Positions 1 through 26,887 of a stretch of DNA of 64,000 bases are shown here, piece by piece (the first letter of the stretch is position 1; every line of letters begins with the position of its first letter). Under the pieces are notes generated by a model. The model searched no databases. It saw nothing but the letters and a program-made list of their open reading frames with translations, and was not told the origin of the DNA. The stretch lies in assembly GCF_030013595.1 (NCBI RefSeq), contig NZ_CP122768.1. The stretch is one strand, 5' to 3'. Made by a program: the position numbers and the translations under genes. Source of the DNA: Escherichia coli. Lineage in GTDB: Bacteria; Pseudomonadota; Gammaproteobacteria; Enterobacterales; Enterobacteriaceae.

Positions 1-232
1 AGCGGCGGCAAAGTGGCAGCAGCTACAACGCGGAGCCGCAGCGTTCTCCATCACATTGGCACGTGGACGCGCAGAACTCTACCCCGAAATGCATGGCACG
101 GTAACAGGCTTTAAAAGCGAGATTGATAATCAGGACTGGATTATTGCGAAAGCCGAGCACACCATTGATAACAGCGGCTTTACCACGCAGCTTGAGCTTG
201 AGGCAAAAATCCCGGAATGGATAGCAGAATGA
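1..232 (+). CDS. 3' fragment of a phage late/tail gene, probably P2 gpD-like (runs off window start)
   Basis: Open frame from window start to TGA at 230-232 (..FTTQLELEAKIPEWIAE*); plus-strand, immediately upstream of an ogr-like gene as in P2 (D then ogr). Identification from position and weak sequence memory only. Confidence 0.4.
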   Translation, partial: AAAKWQQLQRGAAAFSITLARGRAELYPEMHGTVTGFKSEIDNQDWIIAKAEHTIDNSGFTTQLELEAKIPEWIAE

Positions 233-396
233 GACTCTTAAATGTATTAGTCCAGACACGTACTAGCGGGCTAAACGGCACAGTCTTATCTGACCATCTG
301 CCCCTGACACAGAGCAGACGGTCCTTGATCTTACCCACTAATAATGGACGCGCGACTAATATAATTTATTGCTTTTTATTTATACCTCACTGAGAT

Positions 397-1032
397 TTAG
401 CGAGCTAATATATTCAAAGAATTTAACAATTGAGTGTCGAGTGTTTCAGTTGCAGGAATCGGTAATCCATTCGCAATGCGGTAATTTTTCACAGACAGCC
501 TTGTGGATGGCCCCATTATGCCGTCAATATTTCCGTTATAAAATCCCCTGTCCAGCAATGCGAACTGAACTCGCATAATCAATCGCTTACGTTTCTCTGC
601 ATCAGAAGCAAGCCCATTACTCGTACGGTTAACCTCTGAAGTTCCAACAGAACTCGTGTTAGTGGTTCTATTATTATCGTTAGAACGAAGTGCACGCACC
701 GAGGAAGAGGACGATGAGGAACTTGCACCTGAACTTGAAGAACCAGATGAACTTGGTGAGCTGTATGTTTTTGGATAATAGGGGGTACTTCCACCATAGT
801 ATCCACCACCTGATGAGGATCTATGAGAGCTATGGCTCCTATGAGAACTATGGCTTCGATGCCCTGCGATATAAAATGGGACTTCCGTGTTAAGTGGAGC
901 TATCACTAAATCATGCTCATTAAGAGTCATACCAGGTAAATCACTCGCTCCTGTAGATGAATCGCTTGCCCATACAGAATTGTTGAGAGCCAAAAATCCC
1001 GGAAGTAGAGCAGCAAAATTAAACTTTTTCAT
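397..1032 (-). CDS. hxsA: HxsA-type His-Xaa-Ser repeat protein (signal peptide, tandem H-x-S triplets, Ser/Gly/Tyr-rich tract, C-terminal peptidoglycan-binding domain)
   Basis: Translation from MKKFNFAALLPGFLALNNSVWA (Sec-like signal) contains HRSHSSHRSHSSHRS, then SSPSSSGSSSSGASSSSSSSS, then a PG_binding_1-like C-terminus (LLDRGFYNGNIDGIMGPSTRLSVKNYRIANGL). Start ATG overlaps upstream gene stop (ATGA). Confidence 0.8.
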   Translation of the reverse strand: MKKFNFAALLPGFLALNNSVWASDSSTGASDLPGMTLNEHDLVIAPLNTEVPFYIAGHRSHSSHRSHSSHRSSSGGGYYGGSTPYYPKTYSSPSSSGSSSSGASSSSSSSSVRALRSNDNNRTTNTSSVGTSEVNRTSNGLASDAEKRKRLIMRVQFALLDRGFYNGNIDGIMGPSTRLSVKNYRIANGLPIPATETLDTQLLNSLNILAR

Positions 1033-2141
1033 AAAATTGGTCTCGGTGATTGATGAAAACGGCCTTTTGAGGAACTGAAATAGCCAGCACAGGAAGGCTT
1101 CTGAGTACATTCATCACATTCTTTTGGATAGTAATTTTTCCAATCAGAGATCGACTGAACAGCAAGCTCCCTAGCCCTTTCAGGAAGATAACACAAAGGA
1201 TAATTAAAAATTGTCAGAGGTATGCCTGACCTGTATGCAGCGTCTATGGCAGAGATTATTTTCTCACTATAACTACTGTGATCAATGAAGATGGTGGACC
1301 AGTTTTTTCGTGCCCAACCGATAGGCTCCAACCCCATAAGGGAAATCTGATTGATGTTGGAGAACACACGGCCAGCGAATTCTACGATATCATCCAATTC
1401 GGTATAGTTAGCCAGTGTAGGAATAACTCTAAGTTCGATATTAATCCCCAAGTTTCCTGCATTGATTAACCCTTTAACCGTTTCATTAAATGCGCCATCA
1501 CTCCCTACCAGATGATCATGCACAAGTGGTCTTGATGAGTAGAGCGGGATACCAAAGGTGATTTTGATCTTTTTGCTTCGCTTTGCCATTTCCTGTGTAA
1601 AGTTGGTATCAGCAAATTTGCGTCCGTTTGTTAAAACATGTAAAGCAGTATCTGGTGAATTCTCGATGATAAAATCAATGAAGTGAAGGAAGTCATCCCC
1701 ATATAGCAAAGGTTCACCACCGCTGACCCCAACAACTCCGTTCAAGCCAAATGAAGCTATAGCAAGAGCTGATTGGGTAAGTAGCCAGTCATCATTTATT
1801 TTCTTTGGTGGCTGCGAACAAAACAGACACAAGTTATTGCAGCGTTCCGTAACTAAGACAGTATTATGATTGGCTTTGCGTGACAGAATAACGCGTATCA
1901 TATTGCCATTGTTGATTATCCCAATATCTCCATCTTCAATTGACTCAAATAATTCAGTGCTAATAACAGAGAAATCAAAGCATGGTGGAATGGCATCATT
2001 ATTGCCTTCAGCAACTACTAGCAAATTGGGCAAAAAGAATAAAGGGTTCACTGGTTTTTGTTTGCATAACCGATAGAACCCCGTGGGCACGTTCTCTGTA
2101 GAAGCAAAATGAAAGATATCGTTCCTGATAACCTCAGACAT
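1029..2141 (-). CDS. Radical SAM maturase of the His-Xaa-Ser system (HxsB/HxsC-type; which of the two is not resolved)
   Basis: 370 aa ORF with CNNLCLFC (CxxxCxxC radical SAM cluster) and a C-terminal Cys-rich region (CDECTQKPSCAGY); sits between the other rSAM gene and hxsA with overlapping stop/start codons. Confidence 0.8.
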   Translation of the reverse strand: MSEVIRNDIFHFASTENVPTGFYRLCKQKPVNPLFFLPNLLVVAEGNNDAIPPCFDFSVISTELFESIEDGDIGIINNGNMIRVILSRKANHNTVLVTERCNNLCLFCSQPPKKINDDWLLTQSALAIASFGLNGVVGVSGGEPLLYGDDFLHFIDFIIENSPDTALHVLTNGRKFADTNFTQEMAKRSKKIKITFGIPLYSSRPLVHDHLVGSDGAFNETVKGLINAGNLGINIELRVIPTLANYTELDDIVEFAGRVFSNINQISLMGLEPIGWARKNWSTIFIDHSSYSEKIISAIDAAYRSGIPLTIFNYPLCYLPERARELAVQSISDWKNYYPKECDECTQKPSCAGYFSSSKGRFHQSPRPIL

Positions 2142-3522
2142 ATGCCCATCCTTTTAGCATCTCAGCCTTCGAACCACCCTCTGAGATGCAGTTCATCAGA
2201 TACCTGAACATCCCCTTGTGATATTGACAAAACGTTGAACGACTCCTATCACCGACAGGCTCACCCTGTACACTTATGTTCTGGCATGGATCTGAACCAC
2301 AAAATGGTTGATATGCACATGTATCACAACCTGGCAGAGCAAAATTGAACGATGAACTCAATACTGCGTTATAGTAAGGACTATCAGAAAATGATAGCGT
2401 CTTAACTTCACCCGCACTGAACTCCGTTTCAGGATTCACCTTCTGCAACATACGGCTCTCATCGCTACCATATACTCGACCGTCATAATTGAAAAGAATA
2501 CTGTTAAGCACGACTCCACTTGGAGACTTTAAATCCGCATAACCACTAAAACCGGGATTGAAGATCCTTTTCAGATGAATGGAGGCCGAATGTTCCACAA
2601 CCCTTATCCCTTCATTATTAATCTTAAGGATTTCATCTATCAACGAGGCATAGAAGCTGAAGTATTCGTCCATAGAAAAGGTGAAAGAAGCTTTTTGTGC
2701 AAACCCATAGGGACTAACAGGTCGGATAAACATGTCCTTGAGACCAAGAGACAAGTGAGCCTGAACAATCGATTCAGGACGTCTGATAAGCTCTTTAGTA
2801 ACTGTAGTAACCGTTGCAACGCGGCCAGCACCTAAAGAGTGTTTGATAGCCTCTACCCCTGACACTGTTCTACTGTACGCAAGCCCACGACCAAGAATTC
2901 GATTACTGTTGTGAACAACTTCCTCACCATCAAGCGACACAGAGAACGTTATGTTCCGGTCTCTCGACCATTCAATCATATCCTCATTCAAGACAGACAG
3001 ACTTGATGCCACCACCATCTCAAAATTGGTTCTTCCCAGCGTTTCAGCACATTGATCATAGATGCTCTGAATTAAATCAAACCGCAAGAGAGGCTCCCCA
3101 CCCTGTATCTCTATTTTGTAAGGTGGCGTTGATAGTTTTTTAATAGCCGAAATAATATCGGGGATGAGCTCAGGATTTAGGTCGTAACCTGAGGCATTAA
3201 CAGAAGCTCTACTAACCTGGCAATACTTGCATGTATGGTCACAACGTAATGTGGGTACAATCATGAAAATTGGCCTGACAGCCAGTTCATTCATCAATCG
3301 TTTTGCAAAAGCAGAACTTAAAGCATAGGGAGTTATAGCAGATGAGCTTTCACTGGTTATGAAAAGCTTACTTTCTAGCACGTTTGATTGCTCCGAACTA
3401 ATTCGCTCATCAGAAAGATCAATAAGGTCTTGCTCACCAATGAAATGATGAAAACCTGCAAGGTTGCTTATAAACACCTGTCCATTAGGCAATCTGTCAA
3501 AATTAAATGGCATCAATTCCAT
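2134..3522 (-). CDS. Radical SAM/SPASM-type maturase of the His-Xaa-Ser system (HxsB/HxsC-type)
   Basis: 462 aa ORF with CDHTCKYC radical SAM motif and C-terminal auxiliary-cluster cysteines (CDTCAYQPFCGSDPCQ...FCQ); stop overlaps next gene start by 8 nt; start overlaps hxsD stop (TAATG). Confidence 0.8.
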   Translation of the reverse strand: MELMPFNFDRLPNGQVFISNLAGFHHFIGEQDLIDLSDERISSEQSNVLESKLFITSESSSAITPYALSSAFAKRLMNELAVRPIFMIVPTLRCDHTCKYCQVSRASVNASGYDLNPELIPDIISAIKKLSTPPYKIEIQGGEPLLRFDLIQSIYDQCAETLGRTNFEMVVASSLSVLNEDMIEWSRDRNITFSVSLDGEEVVHNSNRILGRGLAYSRTVSGVEAIKHSLGAGRVATVTTVTKELIRRPESIVQAHLSLGLKDMFIRPVSPYGFAQKASFTFSMDEYFSFYASLIDEILKINNEGIRVVEHSASIHLKRIFNPGFSGYADLKSPSGVVLNSILFNYDGRVYGSDESRMLQKVNPETEFSAGEVKTLSFSDSPYYNAVLSSSFNFALPGCDTCAYQPFCGSDPCQNISVQGEPVGDRSRSTFCQYHKGMFRYLMNCISEGGSKAEMLKGWAYV

Positions 3523-3836
3523 TATGAAAGCCTCTCATCAACACTGCGAAGCACTTTATGGACAATAGAGTCTCTCAACGCCCCTGTTTTATGCTGTAGC
3601 TTTTCTCGCAAAGAGTAATCATTAAGCAGCCTATCGAATTCATAAAGGAATTTGGGATTATCGTTTTCAAAAGAGATTATCCAGTGGGAAACGTCTTCAT
3701 GGAGTTTCCATCGAGTAAGCGGAGTCATCCAATATAGACTATTGCGTATAACCCATTCAGAATATAGTTCTTTCTCAAACACTCTTTCGCTCATTGCAAT
3801 TATCTTCCAATACAAATATTCATGATCAGCAACCAC
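3522..3836 (-). CDS. hxsD: HxsD-type small protein carrying the LLNDYxLRE signature
   Basis: 104 aa ORF containing FDRLLNDYSLREKLQ; first gene of the four-gene minus-strand operon. True start may be an internal Met (MSERVF). Confidence 0.75.
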   Translation of the reverse strand: MVADHEYLYWKIIAMSERVFEKELYSEWVIRNSLYWMTPLTRWKLHEDVSHWIISFENDNPKFLYEFDRLLNDYSLREKLQHKTGALRDSIVHKVLRSVDERLS

Positions 3837-3871
3837 TTTAAAGCGGATTTTTCCTATGGCAACAATAATAT

Positions 3872-3974
3872 AACATATCCATAGATATGTTACAGATGCC
3901 TTGTTTCCCGTTGACTAATACATCACAACGTTAGTAATGGCTATCACAATTGTGAACTTCCACTTTTCACACAA
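3872..3974. promoter_or_regulatory. Divergent hxsD/ogr control region with two dyad-symmetric elements
   Basis: AACATAT-N6-ATATGTT palindrome at 3872-3891 and TGTGAA-N9-TTCACA dyad at 3954-3974, both in the 210-bp gap between divergent hxsD and ogr starts. Confidence 0.3.
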
Positions 3975-4046
3975 GACAAGCTGTTAATTGGAATCTGTAT
4001 CAGTACAACTTAGAATATCGGAAGCACCACAGTAAGGGAGGTCGCT

Positions 4047-4307
4047 ATGTTCCGTTGTCCGCTTTGTGGCGCATCCGCCCGAATCCGCACCAGTCGTCCG
4101 GAAAATGATTCAAACACCGTGCGGCAAAAGTATTACCAATGTAACAACCTAGAATGCGGCGTATGCTTCTCAACACTGGAAGCTTTCCATAAATTCACAT
4201 CAAAACACGCCTCCGGCGCTCACTCTTCAGAAGGTATCCCGTGGCATGAACTGCCAGCTTCACACAAAGGAAACAATCAGATGAGTTTGCCCTTACCTCA
4301 AAATTAA
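4047..4307 (+). CDS. ogr: Ogr/Delta-family zinc-finger late-gene transcription activator
   Basis: MFRCPLCGASARIRTSR...YYQCNNLECGVCF matches the P2 Ogr pattern (MFHCPLC..ARTSR...YHQCQNVNCSATF); C-terminally extended relative to P2 Ogr. Confidence 0.75.
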   Translation: MFRCPLCGASARIRTSRPENDSNTVRQKYYQCNNLECGVCFSTLEAFHKFTSKHASGAHSSEGIPWHELPASHKGNNQMSLPLPQN

Positions 4308-4367
4308 CAGGCAGAATTGCCGGAGTAACAAAAAAGAGATAGATTACGCGCGGGTGCCTTTCGGCTG

Positions 4368-4631
4368 ATGGTCGGAGGGAATACCCGAAGGCCAGATGTG
4401 GAAAGGCCCCGGAAAACATTTCTGTTTAACCGAGGCCCTAACCGCATTACCTTGACAAGTGAAAGGTTAGCGCCTCTCCGGAAAAGGAGCAAGTGCTATG
4501 TCGCAAAAATCGCTTACGGCCATCATGTTCTGCGTGACGGCAATCCTCATCATCTGGATGTTGCACGGTTCGCTGTGCGAAATACGGATGAGATTCTGGG
4601 GAGCGGAGTTTGCGGCGTTCTTACAGTGTAA
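4368..4631 (+). CDS. mok-like reading frame overlapping hok (translational coupling frame of a hok/sok locus)
   Basis: 87-codon ORF in a different frame that starts upstream of and overlaps the hok-like frame, the arrangement typical of mok. Confidence 0.4.
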   Translation: MVGGNTRRPDVERPRKTFLFNRGPNRITLTSERLAPLRKRSKCYVAKIAYGHHVLRDGNPHHLDVARFAVRNTDEILGSGVCGVLTV

Positions 4632-4638
4632 GCAGTAA
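4498..4638 (+). CDS. hok: Hok/Gef-family type I toxin, 46 aa
   Basis: ATG at 4498 preceded by GGAGCA; peptide MSQKSLTAIMFCVTAILIIWMLHGSLCEIRMRFWGAEFAAFLQCKQ has one hydrophobic helix and the Hok-type C-x-T...SLCEIR motif; the 5' element GGGTGCCTT (4352-4360) is complementary to AAGGCACCC (4695-4703), resembling tac/fbi pairing. Confidence 0.7.
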   Translation: MSQKSLTAIMFCVTAILIIWMLHGSLCEIRMRFWGAEFAAFLQCKQ

Positions 4639-4724
4639 GGAAACCGCGACGGGGGAGCAATCCCCCGTCAATCGGTTGCCAGGGTAAGGTCGATAAGGCA
4701 CCCTATCTCACAGACATGAACAAC

Positions 4725-4760
4725 AAACCCGCAACGTAAAAACTGCGGGTTTTCTTTTTG
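4725..4760 (+). terminator. Rho-independent terminator downstream of hok
   Basis: aaacccgcaacgtaaaaactgcggguuu hairpin followed by a T-run. Confidence 0.6.
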
Positions 4761-4902
4761 GTGTCCTTACTGACTTGAAACGGTGATCAGACTATAAGAC
4801 AAAGCCCACAATGTAGCGGGCTTACTCCCCTCTCCCTCCACTGAATGTGGACACATGGTGGAACGAAGATATATAAAACATTATAAATCAATCGGTTACT
4901 GA

Positions 4903-4928
4903 AAGAAAAAAGGCCGCAGAGCGGCCTT
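4903..4928 (-). terminator. Rho-independent terminator ending the minus-strand lambdoid gene set
   Basis: aggccgcagagcggcct hairpin with an A-run on plus strand (T-run on minus strand) immediately 3' of the ORF ending at 4949. Confidence 0.55.
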
Positions 4929-4948
4929 TATGGTTTATTGACAATTGA

Positions 4949-9095: not shown

Positions 9096-10181
9096 TTAGC
9101 TCCTGTTCTTATCTAATTGTGCATTTCGCAATTTATCGTTCAGCACCAATATTTCACCAACTGTTTGTTCAAAACGCCCGGACTCAAGTTCAACCCCAAT
9201 CGTGCGACGCCCCAATCCCATTGCTGCTTTTATTGTTGCCCCCGATCCCATAAAAAAATCCGCAACCACATCCCCCGGACGACTGCTGGCAGAAATTATC
9301 TGACGCAACATATCCGCCGGTTTTTCGCAGGGATGCTTACCCGGATAATACTGCACGGGCTTATGCGTCCAGACGTCCGTATAAGGAACGGCGGCCGATA
9401 CAGAAAAATAACGCCGCAGAGATTTGTATTCCTCAAGCAGACTGGCATATTGCCGGTTCAGTTCACTGTATGTGCTGACCAGTTGCTGGTGTGGCGTTGC
9501 CAGCTCCCCACGCTGGTGCTTTTCTTCTGCAACACACGCGAACAGCGCCTGCAGTTTTCTGTAATCAGCTTCGTTCGGTAACTGCCACTGACAGGTACCA
9601 AACCAGTGCGACACCATGTTTTTCTTTCCGGTGGCTTCCGCTATCTGTTTGGACGTTATCCCCAGTGATTCACGCGCATCACGGAAGTAAGAAATCAGCG
9701 GGGCCATGACGTGTTGTTTAAGCTCGCGCTCCTTTGCCGCATAGCCATCATTTTTTGGCTGGTATGGCCCCTGATAATGTTCGGCAAACAGAATGCGCTC
9801 TGTTGCCGGGAAATACGCCCGCAGGCTTTCTTTGTTGCACCCGTTCCAGCGTCCGGATGGCTTCGCCCAGATAATGTGGTTCAGCACATTAAAGCGCTCA
9901 CGCATCATGATTTCGGTGTCAGATGCCAGGCGATGACCACAGAACAGGTAGAGACTTCCGGCAGGTTTCAGTACCCGCCAGAACTGAGCCAGACACTGAT
10001 CCAGCCATTTCAGGTAATCATCGTCGCCCTTCCACTGGTTATCCCAGCCCTCGGGCTTCACTTTAAAGTATGGCGGGTCTGTGACTATCAGATCGACAGA
10101 GTTTTCCGGTAAGGTCTGGATAAATTCCAGGCAATCAGCGTTGATTAACTCACAACTGGATATTTTTACAGTATCAACCAT
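9096..10181 (-). CDS. Orphan DNA N6-adenine (or N4-cytosine) methyltransferase, beta class
   Basis: LIVTDPPYF (motif IV) precedes DFFMGSGATIKAA (motif I); no adjacent restriction endonuclease gene. Confidence 0.75.
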   Translation of the reverse strand: MVDTVKISSCELINADCLEFIQTLPENSVDLIVTDPPYFKVKPEGWDNQWKGDDDYLKWLDQCLAQFWRVLKPAGSLYLFCGHRLASDTEIMMRERFNVLNHIIWAKPSGRWNGCNKESLRAYFPATERILFAEHYQGPYQPKNDGYAAKERELKQHVMAPLISYFRDARESLGITSKQIAEATGKKNMVSHWFGTCQWQLPNEADYRKLQALFACVAEEKHQRGELATPHQQLVSTYSELNRQYASLLEEYKSLRRYFSVSAAVPYTDVWTHKPVQYYPGKHPCEKPADMLRQIISASSRPGDVVADFFMGSGATIKAAMGLGRRTIGVELESGRFEQTVGEILVLNDKLRNAQLDKNRS

Positions 10182-14163: not shown

Positions 14164-14421
14164 ATGCGTACAACCCAACAATTCAGCATTACATTAACTA
14201 ACGAAATGGCTGACATGGTGCGCGCCCGTGTGGCTTCCGGTGCCTATGCTTCAGAAAGCGAGGTCATTCGTGAAGGGCTTCGCGCACTGAATGAGCGCGA
14301 TAAAGCAATCGAAGCGTGGTTAACGCATTCAGCCGCCCCCTCTCTTGATTCTATCCGCGAAACCCCAAACAACGGACGCTCCATTTCACAGGTTCGCGCC
14401 GCGATTCGATCCGGGAAGTAA
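14164..14421 (+). CDS. parD: ParD-family antitoxin (ribbon-helix-helix)
   Basis: 85 aa; MRTTQQFSITLTNEMADMVRARVASGAYASESEVIREGLRAL typical ParD; immediately upstream of a ParE-like gene. Confidence 0.8.
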   Translation: MRTTQQFSITLTNEMADMVRARVASGAYASESEVIREGLRALNERDKAIEAWLTHSAAPSLDSIRETPNNGRSISQVRAAIRSGK

Positions 14422-14426
14422 TCTGC

Positions 14427-14726
14427 ATGACATATGAAGTCATCATTACTCCTGAGGCCGAACAACAAATAATCAACCTGCACAGGTATATAACGGAGAA
14501 AGCAGGGAACGTCATTGCTGACAATTATGCCAATGCGCTTCTTGATTATCTTGATGGGTTTTCTACATTCCCGCATCGGGGCAATAAACGCGATGATATT
14601 CGCCAGGGGATGCGGGTAACTCATTTCCGCCACAGAACGATTATTGCTTTTGCCGTTGATAGCAGAAAAGTCTTTATTGTCGGTATCTATCATGGTGGGC
14701 AAAGTTATGAAACCGATTTCTTATAA
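14427..14726 (+). CDS. parE: ParE/RelE-family toxin
   Basis: 99 aa; starts 6 nt after parD stop; a hairpin terminator follows. Confidence 0.75.
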   Translation: MTYEVIITPEAEQQIINLHRYITEKAGNVIADNYANALLDYLDGFSTFPHRGNKRDDIRQGMRVTHFRHRTIIAFAVDSRKVFIVGIYHGGQSYETDFL

Positions 14727-17765: not shown

Positions 17766-18431
17766 TCAAACAAAACCAGCCGCTTTCCGGCGTTCATATT
17801 CCTGTTTCAGCAACTCAATTGGCGTTGGTCCCGACGGGTGTTTGGGTGCCGCCAGTTGTCGCCGGACTGGCGGAATGCTCAGGCCATTACCAACATGCTT
17901 TGCCCATTTCGTCAGTTGCCATTCTGCAAGCCGTTTTAACTCCCCTTCGGTCATCTGGCGCTCAATCCCCTTTGAACGCATCTCGAGGCAAATGTGATAC
18001 AGCACAGGCTGAGACCACGGGTACTTATCACTTCCGTCGTATCGCCAGGACTCATTGCGCCAGCGGCGGTACTCCTCCATCACAGCATCCACCGTCAGAC
18101 CAAATGGATTGGCTCCGCTTTCCGAAATCAGCGCCACAAACTCAGCCAGGTCCGGAGGCCATGTTTCACCCGCCCGGCAGCGGTCCATGCACTGGCGGCA
18201 GACCTGCCGGATTTGCTGCTCAGTCATCGCGCCAATCTGTGCAATCCAGAGCTTCGAAGGTGCGGCCCCGTTCTTCTGGGTCCAGCGGTTCGAATAAACC
18301 TCCCCCATGAGTTCCCACAGCTTCCAGGCCGTTTCCGTCGCTGATAAATCCGTTTTCACGTTCCCACTGCTCACGTGCTGCCCGAATTTCCTGAACTGCT
18401 CGTGATGCGGTGCCACCTGGTGCTGCTGCAT
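17766..18431 (-). CDS. Replication protein P-like (helicase loader)
   Basis: C-terminal region resembles lambda P (YPWSQPVLYHICLEMR.. vs YPWKSNAHYWLVTNLY..); strong RBS AAGGGGG before ATG at 18431; start overlaps the O-like frame by about 210 nt, so start or O end is uncertain. Confidence 0.55.
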   Translation of the reverse strand: MQQHQVAPHHEQFRKFGQHVSSGNVKTDLSATETAWKLWELMGEVYSNRWTQKNGAAPSKLWIAQIGAMTEQQIRQVCRQCMDRCRAGETWPPDLAEFVALISESGANPFGLTVDAVMEEYRRWRNESWRYDGSDKYPWSQPVLYHICLEMRSKGIERQMTEGELKRLAEWQLTKWAKHVGNGLSIPPVRRQLAAPKHPSGPTPIELLKQEYERRKAAGFV

Positions 18432-19245
18432 GGTTTACCCCCTTGCTGACTGGTTTAACCTGCGCCCTGACGTGATTTACGTGACGGGCGAATTTCTGCT
18501 CCCACTGAATCTGCGTGAACACTTTCCCCTCCGCTGCCCAGTAGTCCCGGAAGGCTGCAAATTCAGCTGGTGTAAATTCCGGCTCAGGCAGAGCCACTCC
18601 CCACAGAGCAGCCCGTCGTCGAAAATCCGGCGACGGATGCCAGCCATCGGTCATCGGAAATTTCCCGATGGGTTCGCTCATGCCGTCCAGATATTCGGGC
18701 TCCGGTGTCTGCGATGGCGTACCGTTCGACTCACTGGTCGTAGCTCTCTCGCGCACGCGCGCGTTATGTGTGGGGTTTAATTCTTTATCTGTATCTTTAT
18801 CTGTCGTGACTCGTCGTGACATGTCGTGACATATGCGTGACTCGTCGTGACACCCCTCATTCTGTTTTCGTAATTTTTCCCTCTCGCGCTGCGCTCTCTT
18901 GCGCTCTGCCGGGGATTTCGCGGTTTGTGAAACGTTGCCATTGTCCTCTTTCAGTACCTGGCGTTTTTCCCATCCAGTGATTAAATCACCATCAAGTACC
19001 CGCCCCTGCATCGTCTGCAAAATTGAATCAATTACCTCTTCTGTCACGTCGAGCGCACTTGCCAAATCTTCTGTCGTGACATCAATGTGACCTCGCGTGA
19101 CATTTCGTGACGCGCTCACCAGGAGGTGGATATACACTGCCATCACTGTTGCAATTGGCTGCCCTGACACCCTGGCAATTGTTCGCCACTTAGGGTCATT
19201 TGGCATGTCATGCCATAATCTGAGCCAAGCGTTAGCCATACTCAC
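18220..19245 (-). CDS. Replication initiator O-like protein containing the origin iterons
   Basis: 341 aa ORF directly upstream of P-like gene; two clusters of GTCGTGAC-type direct repeats inside the coding sequence, as with ori in lambda O. Confidence 0.55.
   Translation of the reverse strand: MSMANAWLRLWHDMPNDPKWRTIARVSGQPIATVMAVYIHLLVSASRNVTRGHIDVTTEDLASALDVTEEVIDSILQTMQGRVLDGDLITGWEKRQVLKEDNGNVSQTAKSPAERKRAQREREKLRKQNEGCHDESRICHDMSRRVTTDKDTDKELNPTHNARVRERATTSESNGTPSQTPEPEYLDGMSEPIGKFPMTDGWHPSPDFRRRAALWGVALPEPEFTPAEFAAFRDYWAAEGKVFTQIQWEQKFARHVNHVRAQVKPVSKGVNHAAAPGGTASRAVQEIRAAREQWERENGFISDGNGLEAVGTHGGGLFEPLDPEERGRTFEALDCTDWRDD
18801..18852. repeat. Iteron cluster 1 (putative replication origin)
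   Basis: Five tandem approx 10-bp units ending in CGTGAC, preceded by an AT-rich tract. Confidence 0.6.
19070..19113. repeat. Iteron cluster 2
   Basis: Four further GTGAC-containing repeats. Confidence 0.45.
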
Positions 19246-19310: not shown

Positions 19311-19736
19311 TCAATGTACTGCCACAGCATTTCCTGCCGGGCCACCACGGTTCATCTGATTGAAACCGGCGATTGCCACTGCGACAAAATCATCAGCGTC
19401 TCTCACCAGTCGCTCCCGCGTCTCCACCAGCTCCCGAAAATAAGCTGAACTGTGGCTGCGCATTCTGGCCACCAGCAAAGGTGGCATTGCCTTTTCGATC
19501 GCTGGTAACAACGTCTGAATTTTTTCAACTGCATCAGGGGTGTCTTTCTCTACCCAGCGGAAAATTTTCTGGGTATTGCGAGCCAGGGCTTCCGGATGGC
19601 TATCGTCATACAGTTCAGGAAACGTCATACCCAACTCAAAATAAGCCTGGGTTATTCCAGCTGCTGGAACTTTTTCGCCATCAGGACGCGCCCAGGCATT
19701 CATCGCCATGCGGATGTGTTCATGCTTGATTTTCAT
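19311..19736 (-). CDS. YdaT-like protein (CII-position gene downstream of cro)
   Basis: 141 aa ORF in the position and size of Rac ydaT. Confidence 0.4.
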   Translation of the reverse strand: MKIKHEHIRMAMNAWARPDGEKVPAAGITQAYFELGMTFPELYDDSHPEALARNTQKIFRWVEKDTPDAVEKIQTLLPAIEKAMPPLLVARMRSHSSAYFRELVETRERLVRDADDFVAVAIAGFNQMNRGGPAGNAVAVH

Positions 19737-19758: not shown

Positions 19759-20055
19759 TCAGGTATGATCAAATGAGGATTTGTTACTGTCATTTAGTTG
19801 CTTCACTGACATATTCTGCGAACAACATGCCGAACGTCGTAAATATGACCAGTCAATATCAGGACGAAGTTCTTCGCACAGAACCTCACCTCTTGTTGCA
19901 CGTTCAATTGCTGGACATCTCTCGGCAGGCAATTGACGTACCCCTTTGATCCATTGATTTACGCTTGGAGGTGATACACCTAAAAGCCTAGCCATTGCTG
20001 ATTGCCCACCGACAACAGCACAAGCTTGCTTGAATGAATAGTTCTCTTTTTTCAT
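19759..20055 (-). CDS. Cro-like HTH regulator (YdaS-like)
   Basis: 98 aa; divergent from repressor gene across an operator-rich gap; GGAG RBS. Confidence 0.6.
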   Translation of the reverse strand: MKKENYSFKQACAVVGGQSAMARLLGVSPPSVNQWIKGVRQLPAERCPAIERATRGEVLCEELRPDIDWSYLRRSACCSQNMSVKQLNDSNKSSFDHT

Positions 20056-20178: not shown

Positions 20179-20655
20179 ATGCTTAGTGGTAAAGACTTAG
20201 GCCGAGCGATAGAGCAGGCCATTAACAAAAAAATCGCATCGGGATCCGTCAAATCAAAGGCGGAGGTCGCACGCCACTTCAAAGTCCAACCACCATCAAT
20301 TTATGACTGGATTAAGAAAGGCTCTATAAGTAAAGATAAACTTCCAGAATTATGGCGTTTCTTTTCTGATGTTGTTGGTCCAGAGCATTGGGGGCTTAAC
20401 GAATACCCCATACCAACCCCCACCAATTCAGATACAAAAAGTGAACTTTTAGATATAAACAACCTTTATCAAGCAGCCTCTGATGAAATAAGAGCGATTG
20501 TAGCTTTCCTGTTATCTGGAAATGCTACAGAACCAGATTGGGTTGACCACGATGTTCGCGCCTACATAGCAGCGATGGAAATGAAAGTGGGTAAGTATCT
20601 GAAAGCTCTAGAATCTGAACGGAAAAGCCAGAACATCACAAAAACTGGAACTTAA
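20179..20655 (+). CDS. Prophage repressor (CI-like, no peptidase domain; RacR-like size)
   Basis: 158 aa with N-terminal HTH-like region; flanked on both sides by the same operator motif. Confidence 0.55.
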   Translation: MLSGKDLGRAIEQAINKKIASGSVKSKAEVARHFKVQPPSIYDWIKKGSISKDKLPELWRFFSDVVGPEHWGLNEYPIPTPTNSDTKSELLDINNLYQAASDEIRAIVAFLLSGNATEPDWVDHDVRAYIAAMEMKVGKYLKALESERKSQNITKTGT

Positions 20656-20793: not shown

Positions 20794-20892
20794 TCCAGCA
20801 TACCACCCACCCCGCCCCACAGAACGCAGGGCAATACTTCGAGTTACCAGGCAGTGGTCAGGGGTTAAGTAGCCAGCCCGAGGCGTAAGAAC

Positions 20893-21126
20893 ATGACGGC
20901 AGGGTTCAACTTTAACTATGCAGCAGGTTTTTGTTCCGCCACCCCGGCGTTAAGGGGAAATGAGGTCAGCATGGATACTATCGATCTTGGCAACAGCGAA
21001 TCTCTGGTATGTGGCGTGTTCCCCAACCAGGACGGCACGTTCACTGCGATGACGTATACCAAAAGCAAAACGTTTAAAACCGAATCTGGCGCGCGTCGCT
21101 GGCTGGAAAGAAACTCAGGTGAGTGA
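20893..21126 (+). CDS. Hypothetical early-left protein (start uncertain)
   Basis: ORF; alternative ATG at 20971. Confidence 0.3.
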   Translation: MTAGFNFNYAAGFCSATPALRGNEVSMDTIDLGNSESLVCGVFPNQDGTFTAMTYTKSKTFKTESGARRWLERNSGE

Positions 21127-21127
21127 T

Positions 21128-21259
21128 ATGGATTTCGACACAATCATGGAAAAGGCTTACGAAGAATACTTCGAAGGCCTTGCCGAAGGCGAAGAAGCTC
21201 TCAGCTTCAGTGAGTTTAAACAGGCGCTTTCCAGCTCGGCAAAATCTAACGGCTGATAA
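21128..21259 (+). CDS. Small acidic hypothetical protein, 43 aa
   Basis: ATG with AGGTGAG RBS; below ORF-track cutoff. Confidence 0.3.
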
Positions 21260-21285
21260 GCGAAGCAGCACCGCGAGGAATCAGT

Positions 21286-21504
21286 ATGCAGAAACGAGAA
21301 CCCGTCATCATCGCGCCAGACTATACCGATGATGAACTTTATGAGTGGATGCGCCAGAAAATTAATGCAGCGCAGGATCTGAAATGGGCCAATGAAGCCA
21401 GGGCTAAGCAGGCTGAAAATCTGTCCGCTCTGGAGCAGGATATCACCAGGCTGGAAAAAGCAGCGGCATTAAGCATTGCCAGAATGATTTCATACCCGCG
21501 TTAA
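21286..21504 (+). CDS. Hypothetical early-left protein
   Basis: 72 aa ORF with GAGGA RBS. Confidence 0.4.
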   Translation: MQKREPVIIAPDYTDDELYEWMRQKINAAQDLKWANEARAKQAENLSALEQDITRLEKAAALSIARMISYPR

Positions 21505-21639
21505 TAGCTAACCAACGAAGCTAAGGTTGGTAATTAAGGAGTTCTCCACGGGTCAGGTGGAGTGCGTGCGCCGGACACGGGTGAGCATCCGGTACGTTCT
21601 TTAAAAATCTGGATAGTCCCAACTTATTTAAACGGTTAA

Positions 21640-22071
21640 TTATCTTGAGTTCATCCAGAACTTATTATTGCAAGCGAGGCAAAAAGTACGAAAATGAGCA
21701 TCAAAGCGCATTATTTCCATTGGCTGAAGTACAGATATTACCTTTTTTCCAAAACATTGTGGGCAAAGATACACAGTTATCTCAGTATCGCCTATAAATT
21801 GCTTCTTGGAATATACAAGGGTTCCAGAATCAAGCTTGTTAAGCTTGTAACCTTCCGCCTGTCGCTGAAAATCTTCTGTCTCTGCAATTTTTGCTTTGAG
21901 ATGCATTATCTCTTCATCACGAAAGCGGATCGCATCGCAAAGAGAGAAGCATTCCGCCTGAAGCGTGATTAGTTTGTTCTGAAGTTCAATAGTTGCGGCT
22001 TTAACTTCTGCATCCGTTTTTGCGTCATTAATAACCTTAGCGAGACCAGCTGTCTCCTTTATCGCAGCCAT
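21640..22071 (-). CDS. Coiled-coil protein with C-terminal zinc-ribbon, encoded antisense to the early-left operon
   Basis: Probable start MAAIKETAG; CPQCFGK...CLACNNKF motifs; AT-rich segment. Confidence 0.4.
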   Translation of the reverse strand: MAAIKETAGLAKVINDAKTDAEVKAATIELQNKLITLQAECFSLCDAIRFRDEEIMHLKAKIAETEDFQRQAEGYKLNKLDSGTLVYSKKQFIGDTEITVYLCPQCFGKKVISVLQPMEIMRFDAHFRTFCLACNNKFWMNSR

Positions 22072-22411
22072 AGCCGCTGACAGTTCTGCTATCACGTTGA
22101 GTACTCTTCTCGTTGTTGGGGATATCCGGATTATACAAATTTCTTGTTGTTGGGGAATAACAGGAACCACCTCGCCTGACGTGGTTAAAAGCAGGCACAC
22201 AACGCGAAAGCGTACGGCGAGGTAGCTGGTTCATAGATAGCCTGTCGTTAAATTTTCGTCGACCGTGCACTTCCGGTTGTGGCAATCCGCGAAATGGCGC
22301 GGCGGTAAGTATGGCTGGGTTATCCTTACCCCATTAGTGGCACCGGGTTGTCAGGTTGACCATACGCTTAAGTGACAACCCCGCTGCAACAACCCATGTT
22401 GATTACCTTTT

Positions 22412-22622
22412 GGCGGGTATCCGTTTTTTGTTTTCCCTTGTGATACCCGCCCTTTTTAAAGTGAATTTTGTGATGCGGTGAATGCGGCTCAGCGCACGCG
22501 GAACAGTTAAAAAGGCCAGTTGACTTCCGTATTGGTTCTTATGGGTGGGTTCTCTGTATCCGGCGTTAATTATTAACTGGTTAACGTCACCTGGAGGCAC
22601 CAGGCACCGCATCACAAAATTC
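22412..22622 (+). promoter_or_regulatory. Nested inverted repeats in a 570-bp non-coding gap
   Basis: 10-bp perfect IR GGCGGGTATC/GATACCCGCC (22412-22421, 22442-22451) followed by T-run; 18-bp perfect IR GAATTTTGTGATGCGGTG (22463-22480) and its reverse complement (22605-22622). Confidence 0.4.
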
Positions 22623-22640
22623 ATTGTTGAGGATGCGATA

Positions 22641-22823
22641 ATGGAAACGTTATTACCAAACGTCAATACGTCTGAAGGTTGTTTTGAAATTGGTGTCAGA
22701 ATCAGTAACCCTGTATTTACTGAAGATGCCATTAATAAGAGAAAACACGAACGGGAGCTATTAAATCAAATATGCATTGTTTCAATGCTGGCCCGTTTAC
22801 GCCTGATGCAAAAAGGACGATGA
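22641..22823 (+). CDS. Small hypothetical protein
   Basis: METLLP start with GAGGA RBS. Confidence 0.3.
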   Translation: METLLPNVNTSEGCFEIGVRISNPVFTEDAINKRKHERELLNQICIVSMLARLRLMQKGR

Positions 22824-23029
22824 CAATGAATACAGTATTTGCACTCGTTCTGACGGTTTTTCTTAATACAGGCGAGCCAGTCGATCTTGTTATTGGTATA
22901 CATGACTCAATGAAAGAATGCATGGCTGCCGCAGCGGAACAGAAAATTCCCGGCAACTGTTATCCGGTTGATAAAGTTATTCGCATGGACAATAACGAAA
23001 TCCCGGCAGGACTTAAAACAGCACCGTAA
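22820..23029 (+). CDS. Small hypothetical protein with N-terminal hydrophobic segment
   Basis: ORF; AAGGA RBS. Confidence 0.35.
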   Translation: MTMNTVFALVLTVFLNTGEPVDLVIGIHDSMKECMAAAAEQKIPGNCYPVDKVIRMDNNEIPAGLKTAP

Positions 23030-23109
23030 TTAATATCCGGTTTCATTTTTATATGCCAGCAATGGCAGGGATTTGTTCACCCTTAAATCTGTAATGAGGT
23101 TAAAACAAA

Positions 23110-25581
23110 ATGAGTAAAGTCTTTATTTGCGCCGCCATTCCGGACGAACAGGCAATAAAGGAAGAAGGTGCAGTCGCTGTAGCCACTGCCATTGAAGCCG
23201 GCGACGAACGCCGCGCCCGAGCCAAATTTACCTGGCAATTCCTGGAGCAATATCCGGCTGCTCAGGACTGCGCTTATAAATTTCTTGTTTGCGAGGATAA
23301 ACCCGGCATGCCCCGCCCTGCCATCGACTCCTGGGATACCGAATATATGCAGGAAAACTGCTGGGATGAGGAATCCGCTTCCTTTATTCCGGTCGAACCA
23401 GAATCCGATCCGATGAACGTCAATTTTGACAAGCTGTCCCCTGAAGTACAGAACGCGGTCCTGGTTAAGTTCGACACATGTGAAAACATCACCGTTGATA
23501 TGGTTATTAGCGCACAGGAATTGTTGCAGGAAGACATGGCAACATTCGACGGACATATCGTTGAAGCGTTGATGAAAATGCCAGAAGTTAACGCCATGTA
23601 TCCGGAGCTTAAGTTGCACGCCATTGGGTGGGTTAAGCATAAATGTATTCCTGGTGCTAAATGGCCCGAAATTCAGGCAGAGATGCGCATCTGGAAAAAA
23701 CGTCGCGAAGGTGAACGCAAGGAAACCGGAAAATACACGTCTGTTGTTGATCTCGCCCGCGCCAGAGCCAATCAACAGTACACTGACAATTCAACAGGAA
23801 AAATCAGCCCGGTCATTGCTGCCACTCATCGCGAATACAAGCAGACATGGAAAACACTGGATGACGAACTGGCCTACGCTCTCTGGCCTGGTGATGTGGA
23901 TGCCGGAAACATTGACGGCAGCATCCATCGCTGGGCAAAAAATGAAGTTATCGACAACGACCGCGAAGACTGGAAGCGTATCTCGGCATCAATGCGCAAA
24001 CAGCCTGATGCCCTTCGCTACGACCGCCAGACTATTTTTGGCCTTGTCCGTGAACGTCCGATCGACATTCACAAAGACCCTGTGGCACTGAACAAATACA
24101 TTACTGAATACCTGACTACAAAGGGCGTGTTTGAAGATGAAGGAAGAAATCAGAGCGCAACTGATACTCTCTCGTCGCCAGTACCAGAAACTGATGCAGT
24201 GGAAACGGCAATTCCGGACAACGAAAAAACCGAATGCAAAGTGGAAGTCGAACCATCTGTAGAGCGTGAGGGGCCGTTCTACTTCCTCTTCACCGACAAG
24301 GATGGCGAAAAATATGGTCGCGCAAACAAACTTTCTGGTCTGAATAAGGCGCTGACTGCAGGGGCTACTGAAATCACGAAAGAAGAATATTTTGCCCGTA
24401 AAAACGGTACATACTCAGGTTCACAACAAAATACTGGTGCATCTGACACGACCGCACAACCAGAGCCGGTAAAAGTTACCGCTGACGAAGTAAACAAAAT
24501 TATGCAGGCAGCCAATATCAGCCAGCCTGACGCCGATAAGTTGCTTGCTGTATCACGTGGTGAATTTGTTGCAGGGATTAGCGACCCGAATGATCCGAAA
24601 TGGGTGAAGGGGATTGAAACCCGCGATTCAGTGAATCAGAACCAGCAAGAAACGGAACAGAACGACCAGAAAGCGGAACAAAACAGCCCAAATGCGTTAC
24701 AAAACGAGCCAGAAACGAAACAACCTGAGCCAGTAGCGCAACAGGAAGCGGAAAAAGTCTGCACCGCCTGCGGTCAGACCGGCGGCGGCAACTGCCCTGA
24801 TTGTGGTGCGGTGATGGGCGACGCAACATACCAGGAAACATTCGATGACAAGAACCAGGTTGAAGTTCAGGAAGACGATTCGGAGAAAATGGAAGGCGCT
24901 GAACATCCACACAAAGAGAATGCTGGCAGCGCTCAGGATCACGCCAGCGATAGTGAAACTGGCGAGACGGCAGATCCCTTAATTACGGTGAACGGTCATC
25001 ACGTTATCACATCCACCAGCAGGACGTGTGACCATCTAATGATCGACCTTGAAACCATGGGAAAAAATCCTGATGCCCCGATTATCTCAATAGGTGCAAT
25101 ATTTTTCGATCCGCAAACCGGAGATATGGGACCGGAATTTAGTAAGACTATCGATCTGGAAACTGCTGGCGGAGTCATTGATCGGGACACCATTAAATGG
25201 TGGCTTAAGCAATCACGCGAAGCGCAATCTGCCATTATGACCGATGAAATCCCGTTAGATGATGCACTGTTACAATTGCGGGAATTTATCGACGAAAACT
25301 CCGGTGAATTTTTTGTTCAGGTCTGGGGAAATGGAGCCAACTTCGACAACACGATTTTGCGCCGTTCATACGAACGGCAGGGGATCCCCTGCCCGTGGCG
25401 TTACTACAACGATCGCGATGTACGCACAATCGTTGAGCTGGGGAAAGCCATAGACTTCGATGCCAGAACGGCTATTCCATTCGAAGGTGAGCGCCATAAT
25501 GCACTTGATGACGCCCGTTACCAGGCAAAATACGTTTCAGCAATCTGGCAAAAACTGATCCCGAATCCGGTTGATTTTTAA
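23110..25581 (+). CDS. Large protein with C-terminal DnaQ-like DEDDh 3'-5' exonuclease domain (RecE-position gene)
   Basis: 823 aa; C-terminus has LMIDLETMG (Exo I), WGNGANFDNTIL (Exo II), HNALDDARYQAKY (Exo III); long acidic/Gln-rich linker. Confidence 0.6.
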   Translation: MSKVFICAAIPDEQAIKEEGAVAVATAIEAGDERRARAKFTWQFLEQYPAAQDCAYKFLVCEDKPGMPRPAIDSWDTEYMQENCWDEESASFIPVEPESDPMNVNFDKLSPEVQNAVLVKFDTCENITVDMVISAQELLQEDMATFDGHIVEALMKMPEVNAMYPELKLHAIGWVKHKCIPGAKWPEIQAEMRIWKKRREGERKETGKYTSVVDLARARANQQYTDNSTGKISPVIAATHREYKQTWKTLDDELAYALWPGDVDAGNIDGSIHRWAKNEVIDNDREDWKRISASMRKQPDALRYDRQTIFGLVRERPIDIHKDPVALNKYITEYLTTKGVFEDEGRNQSATDTLSSPVPETDAVETAIPDNEKTECKVEVEPSVEREGPFYFLFTDKDGEKYGRANKLSGLNKALTAGATEITKEEYFARKNGTYSGSQQNTGASDTTAQPEPVKVTADEVNKIMQAANISQPDADKLLAVSRGEFVAGISDPNDPKWVKGIETRDSVNQNQQETEQNDQKAEQNSPNALQNEPETKQPEPVAQQEAEKVCTACGQTGGGNCPDCGAVMGDATYQETFDDKNQVEVQEDDSEKMEGAEHPHKENAGSAQDHASDSETGETADPLITVNGHHVITSTSRTCDHLMIDLETMGKNPDAPIISIGAIFFDPQTGDMGPEFSKTIDLETAGGVIDRDTIKWWLKQSREAQSAIMTDEIPLDDALLQLREFIDENSGEFFVQVWGNGANFDNTILRRSYERQGIPCPWRYYNDRDVRTIVELGKAIDFDARTAIPFEGERHNALDDARYQAKYVSAIWQKLIPNPVDF

Positions 25582-25647: not shown

Positions 25648-25899
25648 ATGTACGAATTAACTCTATCGCCAGCAGAGATTCAAGAGATCACGAAATACGA
25701 GCGATACACAAAACAGCAACACCAGTTAAGGCTGCACGGTATCCCATTTGTAATCGGTCCTAAAAACGAACCAATAGTTCTTCGCAGGGATATTCCACAC
25801 GGACTGACTACGATGCCAAAAGCACCTGAACTGGTTTCCGCTGAACCCGATTTTGAGGCGCTGAACAATGGGAAGACCAAGAAAAAACAAAAAAGATAA
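25648..25899 (+). CDS. Probable excisionase / small recombination directionality protein
   Basis: 83 aa ORF overlapping the integrase start by 32 nt; assignment by position. Confidence 0.4.
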   Translation: MYELTLSPAEIQEITKYERYTKQQHQLRLHGIPFVIGPKNEPIVLRRDIPHGLTTMPKAPELVSAEPDFEALNNGKTKKKQKR

Positions 25900-26887
25900 T
25901 GCACTACCACCGCGTGTTAGATCGAATGGTTACAGTTACGTATGGAAACCCGAAGGAAGCACAAGAACTATAGGGCTCGGAAGAGTGCGGGAAACCAGCG
26001 TAGCTAAAGTCTGGCAAAATTATGAGCTGGAAAAAGCAAAACTCCACAACATAATGACAGTAGCTAAATTATGGCACATGTTTATGGACTCCCCTGCATT
26101 TACAGAACTGGCCCCCCGAACCCAAAAAGATTATCGGCAACATCAAAGGGCATTGTTGGCAGTATTCGGAAAAGTGCTTGCTGATAATGTAAAAATTGAA
26201 CAGGTAAGAATTTTCATGGATAAGCGAGGACTTGAGAGCAAGACCCAAGCAAACCATGAACTGGCAAGTCTGAGCCGTGTATACGGATGGGGATATGAGC
26301 GTGGGTATGTGAAAAATAATCCATGCAAAGGAGTCAGAAAATTCACACTTAAAGCCCGTACTGTTTACATCACCGATGAACAGTATGCTGCAATATATGC
26401 GGAAGCAATTCCACAGTTACGTATTGCAATGGAGATATCCTATCTTTGTGCGGCAAGGCTCGGTGATGTACTCGAGCTGAAATGGCAGGATATTATGGAG
26501 AAAGGGATTTACATTGAGCAAAACAAGACCGGCACTAAACAAATCAAGGAATGGTCTCCGCGATTACGTACGGCGATCCAGTTAGCCCGAAATGTATCTT
26601 CCGGCACATGCGAGTATGTGATCAACACAACCAAAGGCGGGAAGGTAATAGCCAAGACGCTGAACAACTGGTGGAATCAGGCTAAACGTGCAGCCGAGCA
26701 AAAAGCCGGCGTTCCGTTTGGGTGCAACTTCCATGACATAAAAGCCAAAGGGATTTCAGATTACGAAGGCAGCAGTCGCGACAAACAAATTTTCAGTGGA
26801 CACAAAACAGAAAATCAGGTGTTGATTTACGATCGTAAAACCAAAATAACACCAACACTGGATTTGCCGCTTGTGGTCAGTAAGTAG
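25868..26887 (+). CDS. Tyrosine-type site-specific integrase
   Basis: 339 aa; catalytic-region motifs (LCAARLGD, HDIKAKG, LIYDRK); adjacent to tRNA-derived att. Confidence 0.85.
   Translation: MGRPRKNKKDNALPPRVRSNGYSYVWKPEGSTRTIGLGRVRETSVAKVWQNYELEKAKLHNIMTVAKLWHMFMDSPAFTELAPRTQKDYRQHQRALLAVFGKVLADNVKIEQVRIFMDKRGLESKTQANHELASLSRVYGWGYERGYVKNNPCKGVRKFTLKARTVYITDEQYAAIYAEAIPQLRIAMEISYLCAARLGDVLELKWQDIMEKGIYIEQNKTGTKQIKEWSPRLRTAIQLARNVSSGTCEYVINTTKGGKVIAKTLNNWWNQAKRAAEQKAGVPFGCNFHDIKAKGISDYEGSSRDKQIFSGHKTENQVLIYDRKTKITPTLDLPLVVSK

Follow-up and report, generated by a model that had tools for sequence, protein, structure and literature searches.

What is a gene doing on the opposite strand of a prophage early operon? 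The question is raised by a 64,000-nucleotide stretch of the Escherichia coli contig NZ_CP122768.1 (assembly GCF_030013595.1), referred to here as the window. An open reading frame (ORF) with its 3' end at 21640, identified from the ORF list and its translation, lies there on the minus strand between ydfC and a DicF-like region, within the leftward early operon of a Rac/Qin-type lambdoid prophage. An earlier note on the window had proposed the gene as a superinfection-exclusion or abortive-infection candidate, since its position mirrors that of exclusion genes such as sieB or rex. Homology searches and structure prediction now support the candidacy through a different relationship: the predicted protein has full-length homology to, and shares the fold of, the phage protein Rip1, and is not related to SieB or Rex. 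The comparisons and the structural model together indicate that the gene is probably a moron of the Rac/Qin-type prophage that by itself forms an anti-phage defence cassette belonging to the Rip1 family.

The minus-strand gene and its homology to Rip1

The minus-strand gene was confirmed as genuine and is not a chance ORF. An identical 456-bp coding sequence (CDS) is present in RefSeq as WP_046788612.1, where it is labelled 'hypothetical protein'. As had been claimed in the earlier note, the gene occupies an AT-rich patch, with a GC content of 0.41 in both the gene and the cassette that holds it versus 0.52 in the left flank and 0.45 in the right, and it lies antisense within the early-left operon, the neighbouring genes all being on the plus strand. 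The extent assigned in that note, 21640 to 22071, was correct with regard to the reading frame and to the 143-amino acid translation from ATG 22071, whose C-terminus reads CPQCFGK...CLACNNKFWMNSR, but not with regard to the start codon. Translation almost certainly begins at GTG 22095, eight codons 5' of that ATG, to yield a protein of 151 amino acids. The N-terminus MIAELSAAM, matching the GTG start, is conserved among close homologues, 75 of 80 related viral loci have GTG as the corresponding codon, and a purine-rich AAGAG is found 8 nt 5' of GTG 22095. In the alignment, relatives from Plesiomonas and Edwardsiella have a TGA in frame four codons 5' of the GTG, and the longer open frame in the window, which continues up to 22200, is therefore accidental. 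An in-frame extension to GTG 22200, which would give 186 amino acids, was rejected as coding sequence on the basis of this TGA and of conservation at the nucleotide level.

The predicted protein matched PHROG 1244, a family of unknown function, with an E value of 2.6e-49, residues 1-142 aligning with positions 9-147 of the 157-position profile. When the PDB chains were searched with phmmer, chain 9oox_L, named ring interacting pore 1 (Rip1), was retrieved at E 1.8e-12, residues 5-146 of the query aligning with residues 15-155 of the chain, and a profile constructed from close homologues retrieved the same chain at E 9.2e-21. BLASTP aligned the protein with Rip1 at 28% identity across 142 residues (E 1e-17). 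PDB entry 9OOX, released 2026-02-04, is a cryo-electron microscopy structure of Rip1 from Escherichia phage HK446 with the small terminase of Enterobacteria phage T6; it includes 12 Rip1 chains, and the modelled chains contain 124-126 of 164 residues. The deposited Rip1 sequence is that of HK446 gp37 (100% match by tblastn). Rip1 is described, in the conference report PMC12908700, as prophage-encoded and as blocking incoming phage, an 11-subunit terminase being capped by 12 Rip1 monomers, and a sentence from a preprint states that Rip1 senses the small terminase subunit (bioRxiv 10.64898/2026.04.30.721860). A Pfam-A scan of the window protein gave only insignificant coiled-coil noise with nothing below E 0.001, and NCBIfam (June 2026 release) gave no hits. 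The homology and structure searches suggested in the earlier note thus led to Rip1, and not to any known structural or regulatory phage protein.

Homologues of the window protein numbered 99 in the 90%-cluster database, with close relatives in Enterobacteriaceae and allies, and an exhaustive search at E <= 1e-3 yielded 928 clusters at 50% identity. The 96 sequences of the family alignment range from 143 to 184 amino acids, and nearly all family members from 145 to 185. Members were found in phages HK620 (hkaP), HK630 and HK629, HK446, ev099, PhiR29 and PhiR49, and in Klebsiella phages. Pseudomonas phage records with a member amounted to 31, including those of the Mu-like phages DMS3, MP38, MP42 and JBD69, and D3112 was added by a separate search. 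One Rhodobacter and one Pelagibaca phage record, whose hosts are given by record name only, each contained a member as well. Together, the alignments and the model described below identify the window protein as a distant relative of Rip1 with the same predicted fold, and make it very probable that its gene is of a known anti-phage kind.

The AlphaFold2 model of the window protein, built with the 96-sequence alignment, had a mean predicted local distance difference test (pLDDT) score of 93.4 and consisted of helices at residues 2-24 and 28-80 followed by a beta domain. The coiled-coil protein ending in CPQCFGK...CLACNNKF that the earlier note had described fits this model, in which helices precede a beta domain bearing a CxxC...CxxC arrangement. 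A Foldseek search of the PDB aligned the model with 9oox_M at a template modelling score of 0.70 by query and 0.82 by target, with a root mean square deviation of 2.9 Å. The chain 9oox_L was also significant; these two chains alone were below E 0.001, and the next PDB match had an E value of 0.29. Cys111, Cys114, Cys139 and Cys142 are the sole invariant columns among the 96 sequences, which include Rip1, HkaP and DMS3 gp25. Residues 1-55 are approximately 80% identical within the close subfamily, and the loop between the two CxxC knuckles, residues 126-138, is hypervariable, with 18% identity among close relatives and 7% across the family. We infer from these features that the helical part, residues 1-80, is the oligomerisation and effector part of the protein and that the C-terminal beta/zinc-ribbon domain is the sensor part. 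On this view, a conserved module for oligomerisation and effector activity would be coupled with a variable one for sensing.

Relatives in other phages and known exclusion systems

In phage HK446, rip1 runs antisense to the leftward operon that contains it and overlaps the end of N. The hkaP gene of HK620 and gene gp40 of HK630 are likewise on the opposite strand, between N/hkaQ and cIII, while the family member is flanked by N and cIII in a Plesiomonas prophage and by rdgC and cI in Edwardsiella prophages. By crude ORF calling, the nearest downstream ORF was antisense in 67 of 80 viral loci. The earlier observation that the gene is placed as exclusion genes are was well founded, as the related Rac-type phage vB_EcoS-666R9 has sieB, likewise antisense, at the corresponding site, and hkaP carries an old annotation, given by position, of 'putative superinfection exclusion protein'. 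No conserved partner gene was found beside the Rip1-family genes of the DMS3, HK620, HK446, Plesiomonas and Edwardsiella loci, and for this reason the family looks like a single-gene system. At the Plesiomonas shigelloides locus (L011, 6226-7152), a protein with a BstA C-terminal domain adjoins the cI-like repressor. BstA is a known prophage abortive-infection family, and this gene is about 0.7 kb from the Rip1-family gene, such that two defence genes flank N.

The window protein and HK446 Rip1 have in common their full-length homology, fold, size class, four cysteines, antisense placement in the leftward operon and the core of a non-coding leader. They differ in that HK446 rip1 is next to N and begins with ATG, whereas the window gene is between ydfC and DicF/dicB and begins with GTG. 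The inter-knuckle loop and the C-terminal tail of Rip1 are also unrelated in sequence to those of the window protein, and the structure of Rip1 was determined together with the small terminase of T6. HkaP of HK620, with HK630 gp40 and the HK629 protein, is similar to the window protein at 27% identity (tblastn E 7e-10) and has the same leader core, but belongs to another subfamily. The Pseudomonas Mu-like phages of the Casadabanvirus group encode DMS3 gp25, D3112 orf25 and MP38 ORF25, which are opposite-strand morons whose products have the four cysteines and 26-28% identity to the window protein; DMS3 gp25 (L004, 3441-3968), however, is without the enterobacterial-type leader. The site of DMS3 gp25 is a hot spot that in JBD26 holds the unrelated 83-residue protein Tab (PMC10884400). 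DMS3 carries gp25 at this Tab site and is itself Tab-sensitive. A literature search found no functional study of HkaP and no function for DMS3 gp25.

SieB of lambda, P22 and Rac, and RexAB of lambda, resemble the window gene as prophage-expressed exclusion or abortive-infection genes in or beside the leftward early operon. Only position is shared, however, as there is no sequence relationship, no SieB or Rex match in Pfam and no PADLOC hit. SieB and RexB are membrane proteins, whereas the window protein is without a transmembrane helix. Membership of the SieB family was rejected, since no Pfam SieB match was obtained, nothing fell below E 0.001, and the model is of a soluble helix and beta domain.

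Tab of JBD26, Tai of phi80 (orf63) and TerI of Listeria phage phi10403S are comparable as small single-gene prophage morons or opposite-strand genes. They act late, on a virion-assembly or packaging protein, and TerI and Rip1 both engage the small terminase. They differ in blocking assembly, and each has a dedicated anti-defence partner. Tab (JBD26 gp31) is an 83-residue protein encoded in the late operon with an adjacent anti-Tab gene (PMC10884400), and Tai is a prophage moron that blocks assembly (PMC11364771). Identity with Tai was considered, since Tai genes occur as morons in lambdoid phages, and was rejected, BLASTP giving no local alignment to phi80 orf63 (TaiEcA) at E <= 100. Identity with Tab was rejected by size, 83 versus 151 amino acids, and by the lack of an adjacent partner, the Tab sequence itself not having been compared. 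TerI, a Listeria system with two anti-defence partners, is an analogy only.

The cassette, its leader and the surrounding prophage

The limits of the cassette were obtained by blastn of the window against phage Tritos, in which window positions 20803-21592 aligned at 97% and 22187-23198 at 87%, with no alignment between (Table 1). The operon of Tritos has the identical order ydfA-ydfB-ydfC-DicF-dicB-ydfD-exonuclease. Read on the minus strand, the cassette consists of a leader of about 105 nt, a TATAAT, the gene, and an AU-rich hairpin over the stop codon followed by UUUUU. The empty site in Tritos retains a diverged remnant of the 5' end of the leader.

Table 1. Coordinates of the rip1-like gene, its predicted accessory elements and the surrounding prophage genes in the window
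Feature	Position	Strand	Details
O-like replication gene	18220-19245	-	
YdaT-like gene	19311-19736	-	
ydaS/cro-like gene	19759-20055	-	
racR-type repressor	20179-20655	+	leftward early operon follows
ydfC	21286..21504	+	left neighbour; RefSeq annotation of identical region, PHROG 1744
Inserted cassette (moron), 594 bp	21593..22186	unstranded	blastn against phage Tritos, which has 32 bp between ydfC and DicF
AU-rich hairpin across stop codon	21603..21659	-	hairpin 21659-21608, UUUUU 21607-21603; z = -2.6 (RNA fold of 21500-21660)
rip1-like CDS	21640..22095	-	151 amino acids, GTG start, TAA stop; same CDS in RefSeq WP_046788612.1
C-terminal beta domain with four-cysteine zinc ribbon, residues 83-151	21643..21849	-	strands modelled with high confidence
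Cys142	21670-21672	-	
Cys139	21679-21681	-	
Cys114	21754-21756	-	
Cys111	21763-21765	-	
N-terminal helical part, residues 1-80	21856..22095	-	Ala/Gly-rich helix 2-24, long helix 28-80
Conserved non-coding leader	22096..22200	-	travels with gene; core GCCTG-CTTTTAACCAC-N-TCAGGC-NN-GGTGG, two direct repeats
Predicted sigma-70 promoter	22130..22157	-	perfect -10 TATAAT 22135-22130, weak -35 TTCCCC 22157-22152, spacer 16
Two interleaved inverted repeats in leader	22167..22196	-	GCCTG 22196-22192/CAGGC 22178-22174; CCAC 22184-22181/GTGG 22170-22167
DicF-like region	22407-22460	+	divergent; precedes dicB; alignment with annotated DicF of Tritos
dicB (cell-division inhibitor)	22641..22823	+	first protein gene right of cassette; RefSeq annotation
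Exonuclease, 823 amino acids	23110-25581	+	
Integrase	25868-26887	+	

Across 45 distinct related loci, nucleotide identity averages 84% in the leader versus 69% in the CDS. The leader core GCCTGTCTTTTAACCACATCAGGCTCGGTGGTTC also precedes rip1 in HK446 and hkaP in HK620, two genes whose products share only 24-28% identity with the window protein, and leader counterparts are present at L008 (3358-3458) and L005 (2881-2982). The direct repeats are TTCCCCAACAACAAG and ATCCCCAACAACGAGAAGAGT in the window leader, and ACCCCTACAGCGAGA and ACCCCTACAGTAAGAGAGT in those of HK446 and HK620. The first repeat overlaps the weak -35 and the second the ribosome-binding region. As read from the sequence, the TATAAT is 34 nt before GTG 22095, and HK446 rip1 has a TAAAAT at the same relative position. 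At three loci (L027, L042 and L043) a leader 96-100% identical is accompanied by a CDS merely 74% identical, which points to recombination inside the gene. At another locus (L026, IMG/VR UViG_2802429237_000003) the gene is cut to 9 codons behind a leader of 97% identity and is likely a pseudogene.

The inverted repeats of the leader were submitted to a covariation test, in which 98% of cells were paired and both-side changes occurred in only 2 pairs (4 cells), too few to establish a structure. RNAalifold kept the first leader stem only, and the cassette and leader had no Rfam match at the gathering threshold, nor at E <= 1. The AU-rich hairpin with its UUUUU may possibly act as a weak intrinsic terminator of the cassette.

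The immunity region of the prophage is inverted relative to the lambda map, and the leftward early operon is accordingly on the plus strand, with the order ydfA-like, ydfB, ydfC, DicF-like, dicB, ydfD-like, exonuclease and int, followed by the host gene yccA. The cassette is rare in E. coli: of 5426 complete genomes, 66 contained at least 80% of a 1201-bp query spanning it, and 4718 contained parts of its flanks. Among the carriers listed, most came from pigs, and many were labelled enterotoxigenic E. coli (ETEC). In some carriers, for example E. coli K_EC180 (L002, 3286-4005), the repressor, the ydaS/ydaT-like genes, ydfA and ydfB are deleted. In carriers of this type, ydfC abuts a truncated O-like gene and both the exonuclease and the integrase are frameshifted, with the rip1-like gene intact.

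An otherwise identical prophage in strain HCP5S3_I2 retains lambda-like terminase, head and tail genes. Homology of the window to this prophage begins at about 4907, and window positions 1-4935 are not lambdoid late DNA but match an HxsABCD locus (His-Xaa-Ser radical-SAM system). In other E. coli the HxsABCD locus adjoins an ogr/Delta-like gene, suggesting cargo of a P2-type prophage. From this arrangement it follows that either genes for terminase, head and tail are missing from the window prophage or a rearrangement between two prophages has affected the genome.

The DicF-like region has flanks identical to those of the annotated Tritos DicF and a 53-nt core that is strongly different. This divergent allele still has the hairpin GGCGGGTATC...GATACCCGCC and the TTTTT after it, and the Rfam DicF model gave no match to 22407-22460 even at E <= 1. 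Just 5' of dicB, at 22464-22618 on the plus strand, there is a sub-threshold match to Rfam STnc100 (33.5 bits versus a gathering threshold of 47, E 2.9e-5). Elsewhere, the prophage has a ParD/ParE (RelE-family) toxin-antitoxin pair at 14164-14726 on the plus strand, antisense to the neighbouring nin-region genes. Its further cargo, by the RefSeq annotation of the identical prophage, includes a DNA methyltransferase (9096-10181) and an HNH endonuclease.

Proposed function and alternative readings

By analogy with Rip1, the prophage would produce small amounts of the window protein. Once an infecting sensitive phage has assembled the ring of its small terminase, approximately 12 protomers would dock onto the ring via their C-terminal beta/zinc-ribbon domains. 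The long helices would then bundle and the assembly would act as a pore, such that the infected cell would be disabled before progeny are complete, a defence of the abortive-infection type. We propose in addition that the Ala/Gly-rich N-terminal helix may be the membrane-active part, and that the hypervariable loop between the CxxC knuckles may contribute to target specificity. Head-on leftward early transcription could lower expression of the gene upon prophage induction.

A number of points weigh against carrying the activity of Rip1 over to the window gene. Protection is supported by homology to Rip1 at about 27% identity. Across comparisons, identity to Rip1 is only 26-28%, and the window protein, Rip1, HkaP and DMS3 gp25 are mutually about equally distant, for which reason the function, and especially the target, may differ. 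The account of the Rip1 mechanism used here is itself drawn from the title of a PDB entry, a meeting summary and one preprint sentence, and in the meeting summary (PMC12908700) the pore-based mechanism is put forward as a suggestion. No transmembrane segment was predicted in the window protein, whose N-terminal helix had a low hydrophobic moment. PADLOC-DB v2.0.0 (2023) returned no families at E <= 1, a blank that is to be expected if Rip1 was described after 2023. A scan with consensus models detected no promoter for the gene and no terminator, the former being missed because its -35 is too weak and the latter because the scan requires 3 G-C pairs. Both elements, with their weak -35 and AU-rich hairpin, are predictions.

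Several of these points would also fit a prophage defence or exclusion protein that has the same fold but a mode of action differing from that of Rip1, in which a ring-shaped packaging or replication protein is sequestered or poisoned without a pore, or a different ring, such as the portal, helicase loader or clamp, is sensed. Such a protein could account for the low identity to Rip1 and the equal distances among the four named family members, for the hypervariable inter-knuckle loop, and for the lack of a transmembrane segment. It would also agree with the pore step of Rip1 being only suggested, and with the assembly block imposed by prophage morons in equivalent spots, namely Tab (PMC10884400), Tai (PMC11364771) and TerI. 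We nonetheless regard this as unlikely, because the depositors of 9OOX named the protein a pore, the architecture is conserved from end to end including the N-terminal helices, and there is no sequence similarity to TaiEcA.

The probability is lower again that the gene serves the life cycle of its own phage, as a zinc-ribbon regulator or as a modulator of the phage's own terminase or packaging, exclusion being at most a side effect. Zinc ribbons are common among small phage regulators, and the unusually conserved leader hints at regulation. The gene is, however, absent from close viable relatives such as Tritos and must therefore be dispensable, and no DNA-binding domain was matched in the NCBIfam and Pfam scans. 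In lambdoid and Mu-like phages alike it is oriented opposite to every surrounding operon, and it has the low GC content that is a signature of morons. The site between terminase genes is also a hot spot for Tab defence (PMC10884400), and the solved complex of Rip1 was with the foreign T6 terminase and not with that of HK446. We find it hardly credible, finally, that the gene is a decaying passenger in a defective prophage, without current function in this strain. The missing lambdoid late region in the window, with the HxsABCD/ogr-type match of 1-4935 in its stead, would suit decay, as would the frameshifted neighbours or deleted immunity region of some carriers and the related viral locus in which 9 codons remain behind an intact leader. 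Yet the ORF is intact and 99.8-99.9% identical in the approximately two dozen carrier genomes listed, and all invariant and nearly invariant family residues are retained, which makes decay improbable; the model is confident throughout, and a defence gene remains useful to its host after the prophage has decayed.

The considerations above leave a Rip1-family defence cassette as the reading that we favour for this locus. Beyond it, and with considerable doubt, one may ask whether this deeply diverged subfamily recognises a ring other than the T-even small terminase, the hypervariable loop being a swappable specificity module. In the same speculative vein, Rip1-type cassettes might be controlled or mobilised by the leader, acting as a dedicated regulatory element or as a recombination joint.

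The gene is a divergent further member of the Rip1 family and not a new kind of system. Through the link to Rip1, a large unannotated family, PHROG 1244, acquires a name and a mechanism that can be tested. The family has about 930 clusters at 50% identity, occurs in temperate phages that infect Enterobacteriaceae and Pseudomonas and, judged by record names alone, in phages of Rhodobacter and Pelagibaca, and takes in the long-unexplained hkaP of HK620 and gp25 of DMS3. It also offers handles on how such sensors diversify, namely the pairing of a conserved module, made up of the N-terminal part and the leader, with a variable C-terminal one, and a leader more conserved than the protein. In the strains that carry it, the cassette could affect the response to phages, including therapeutic ones.

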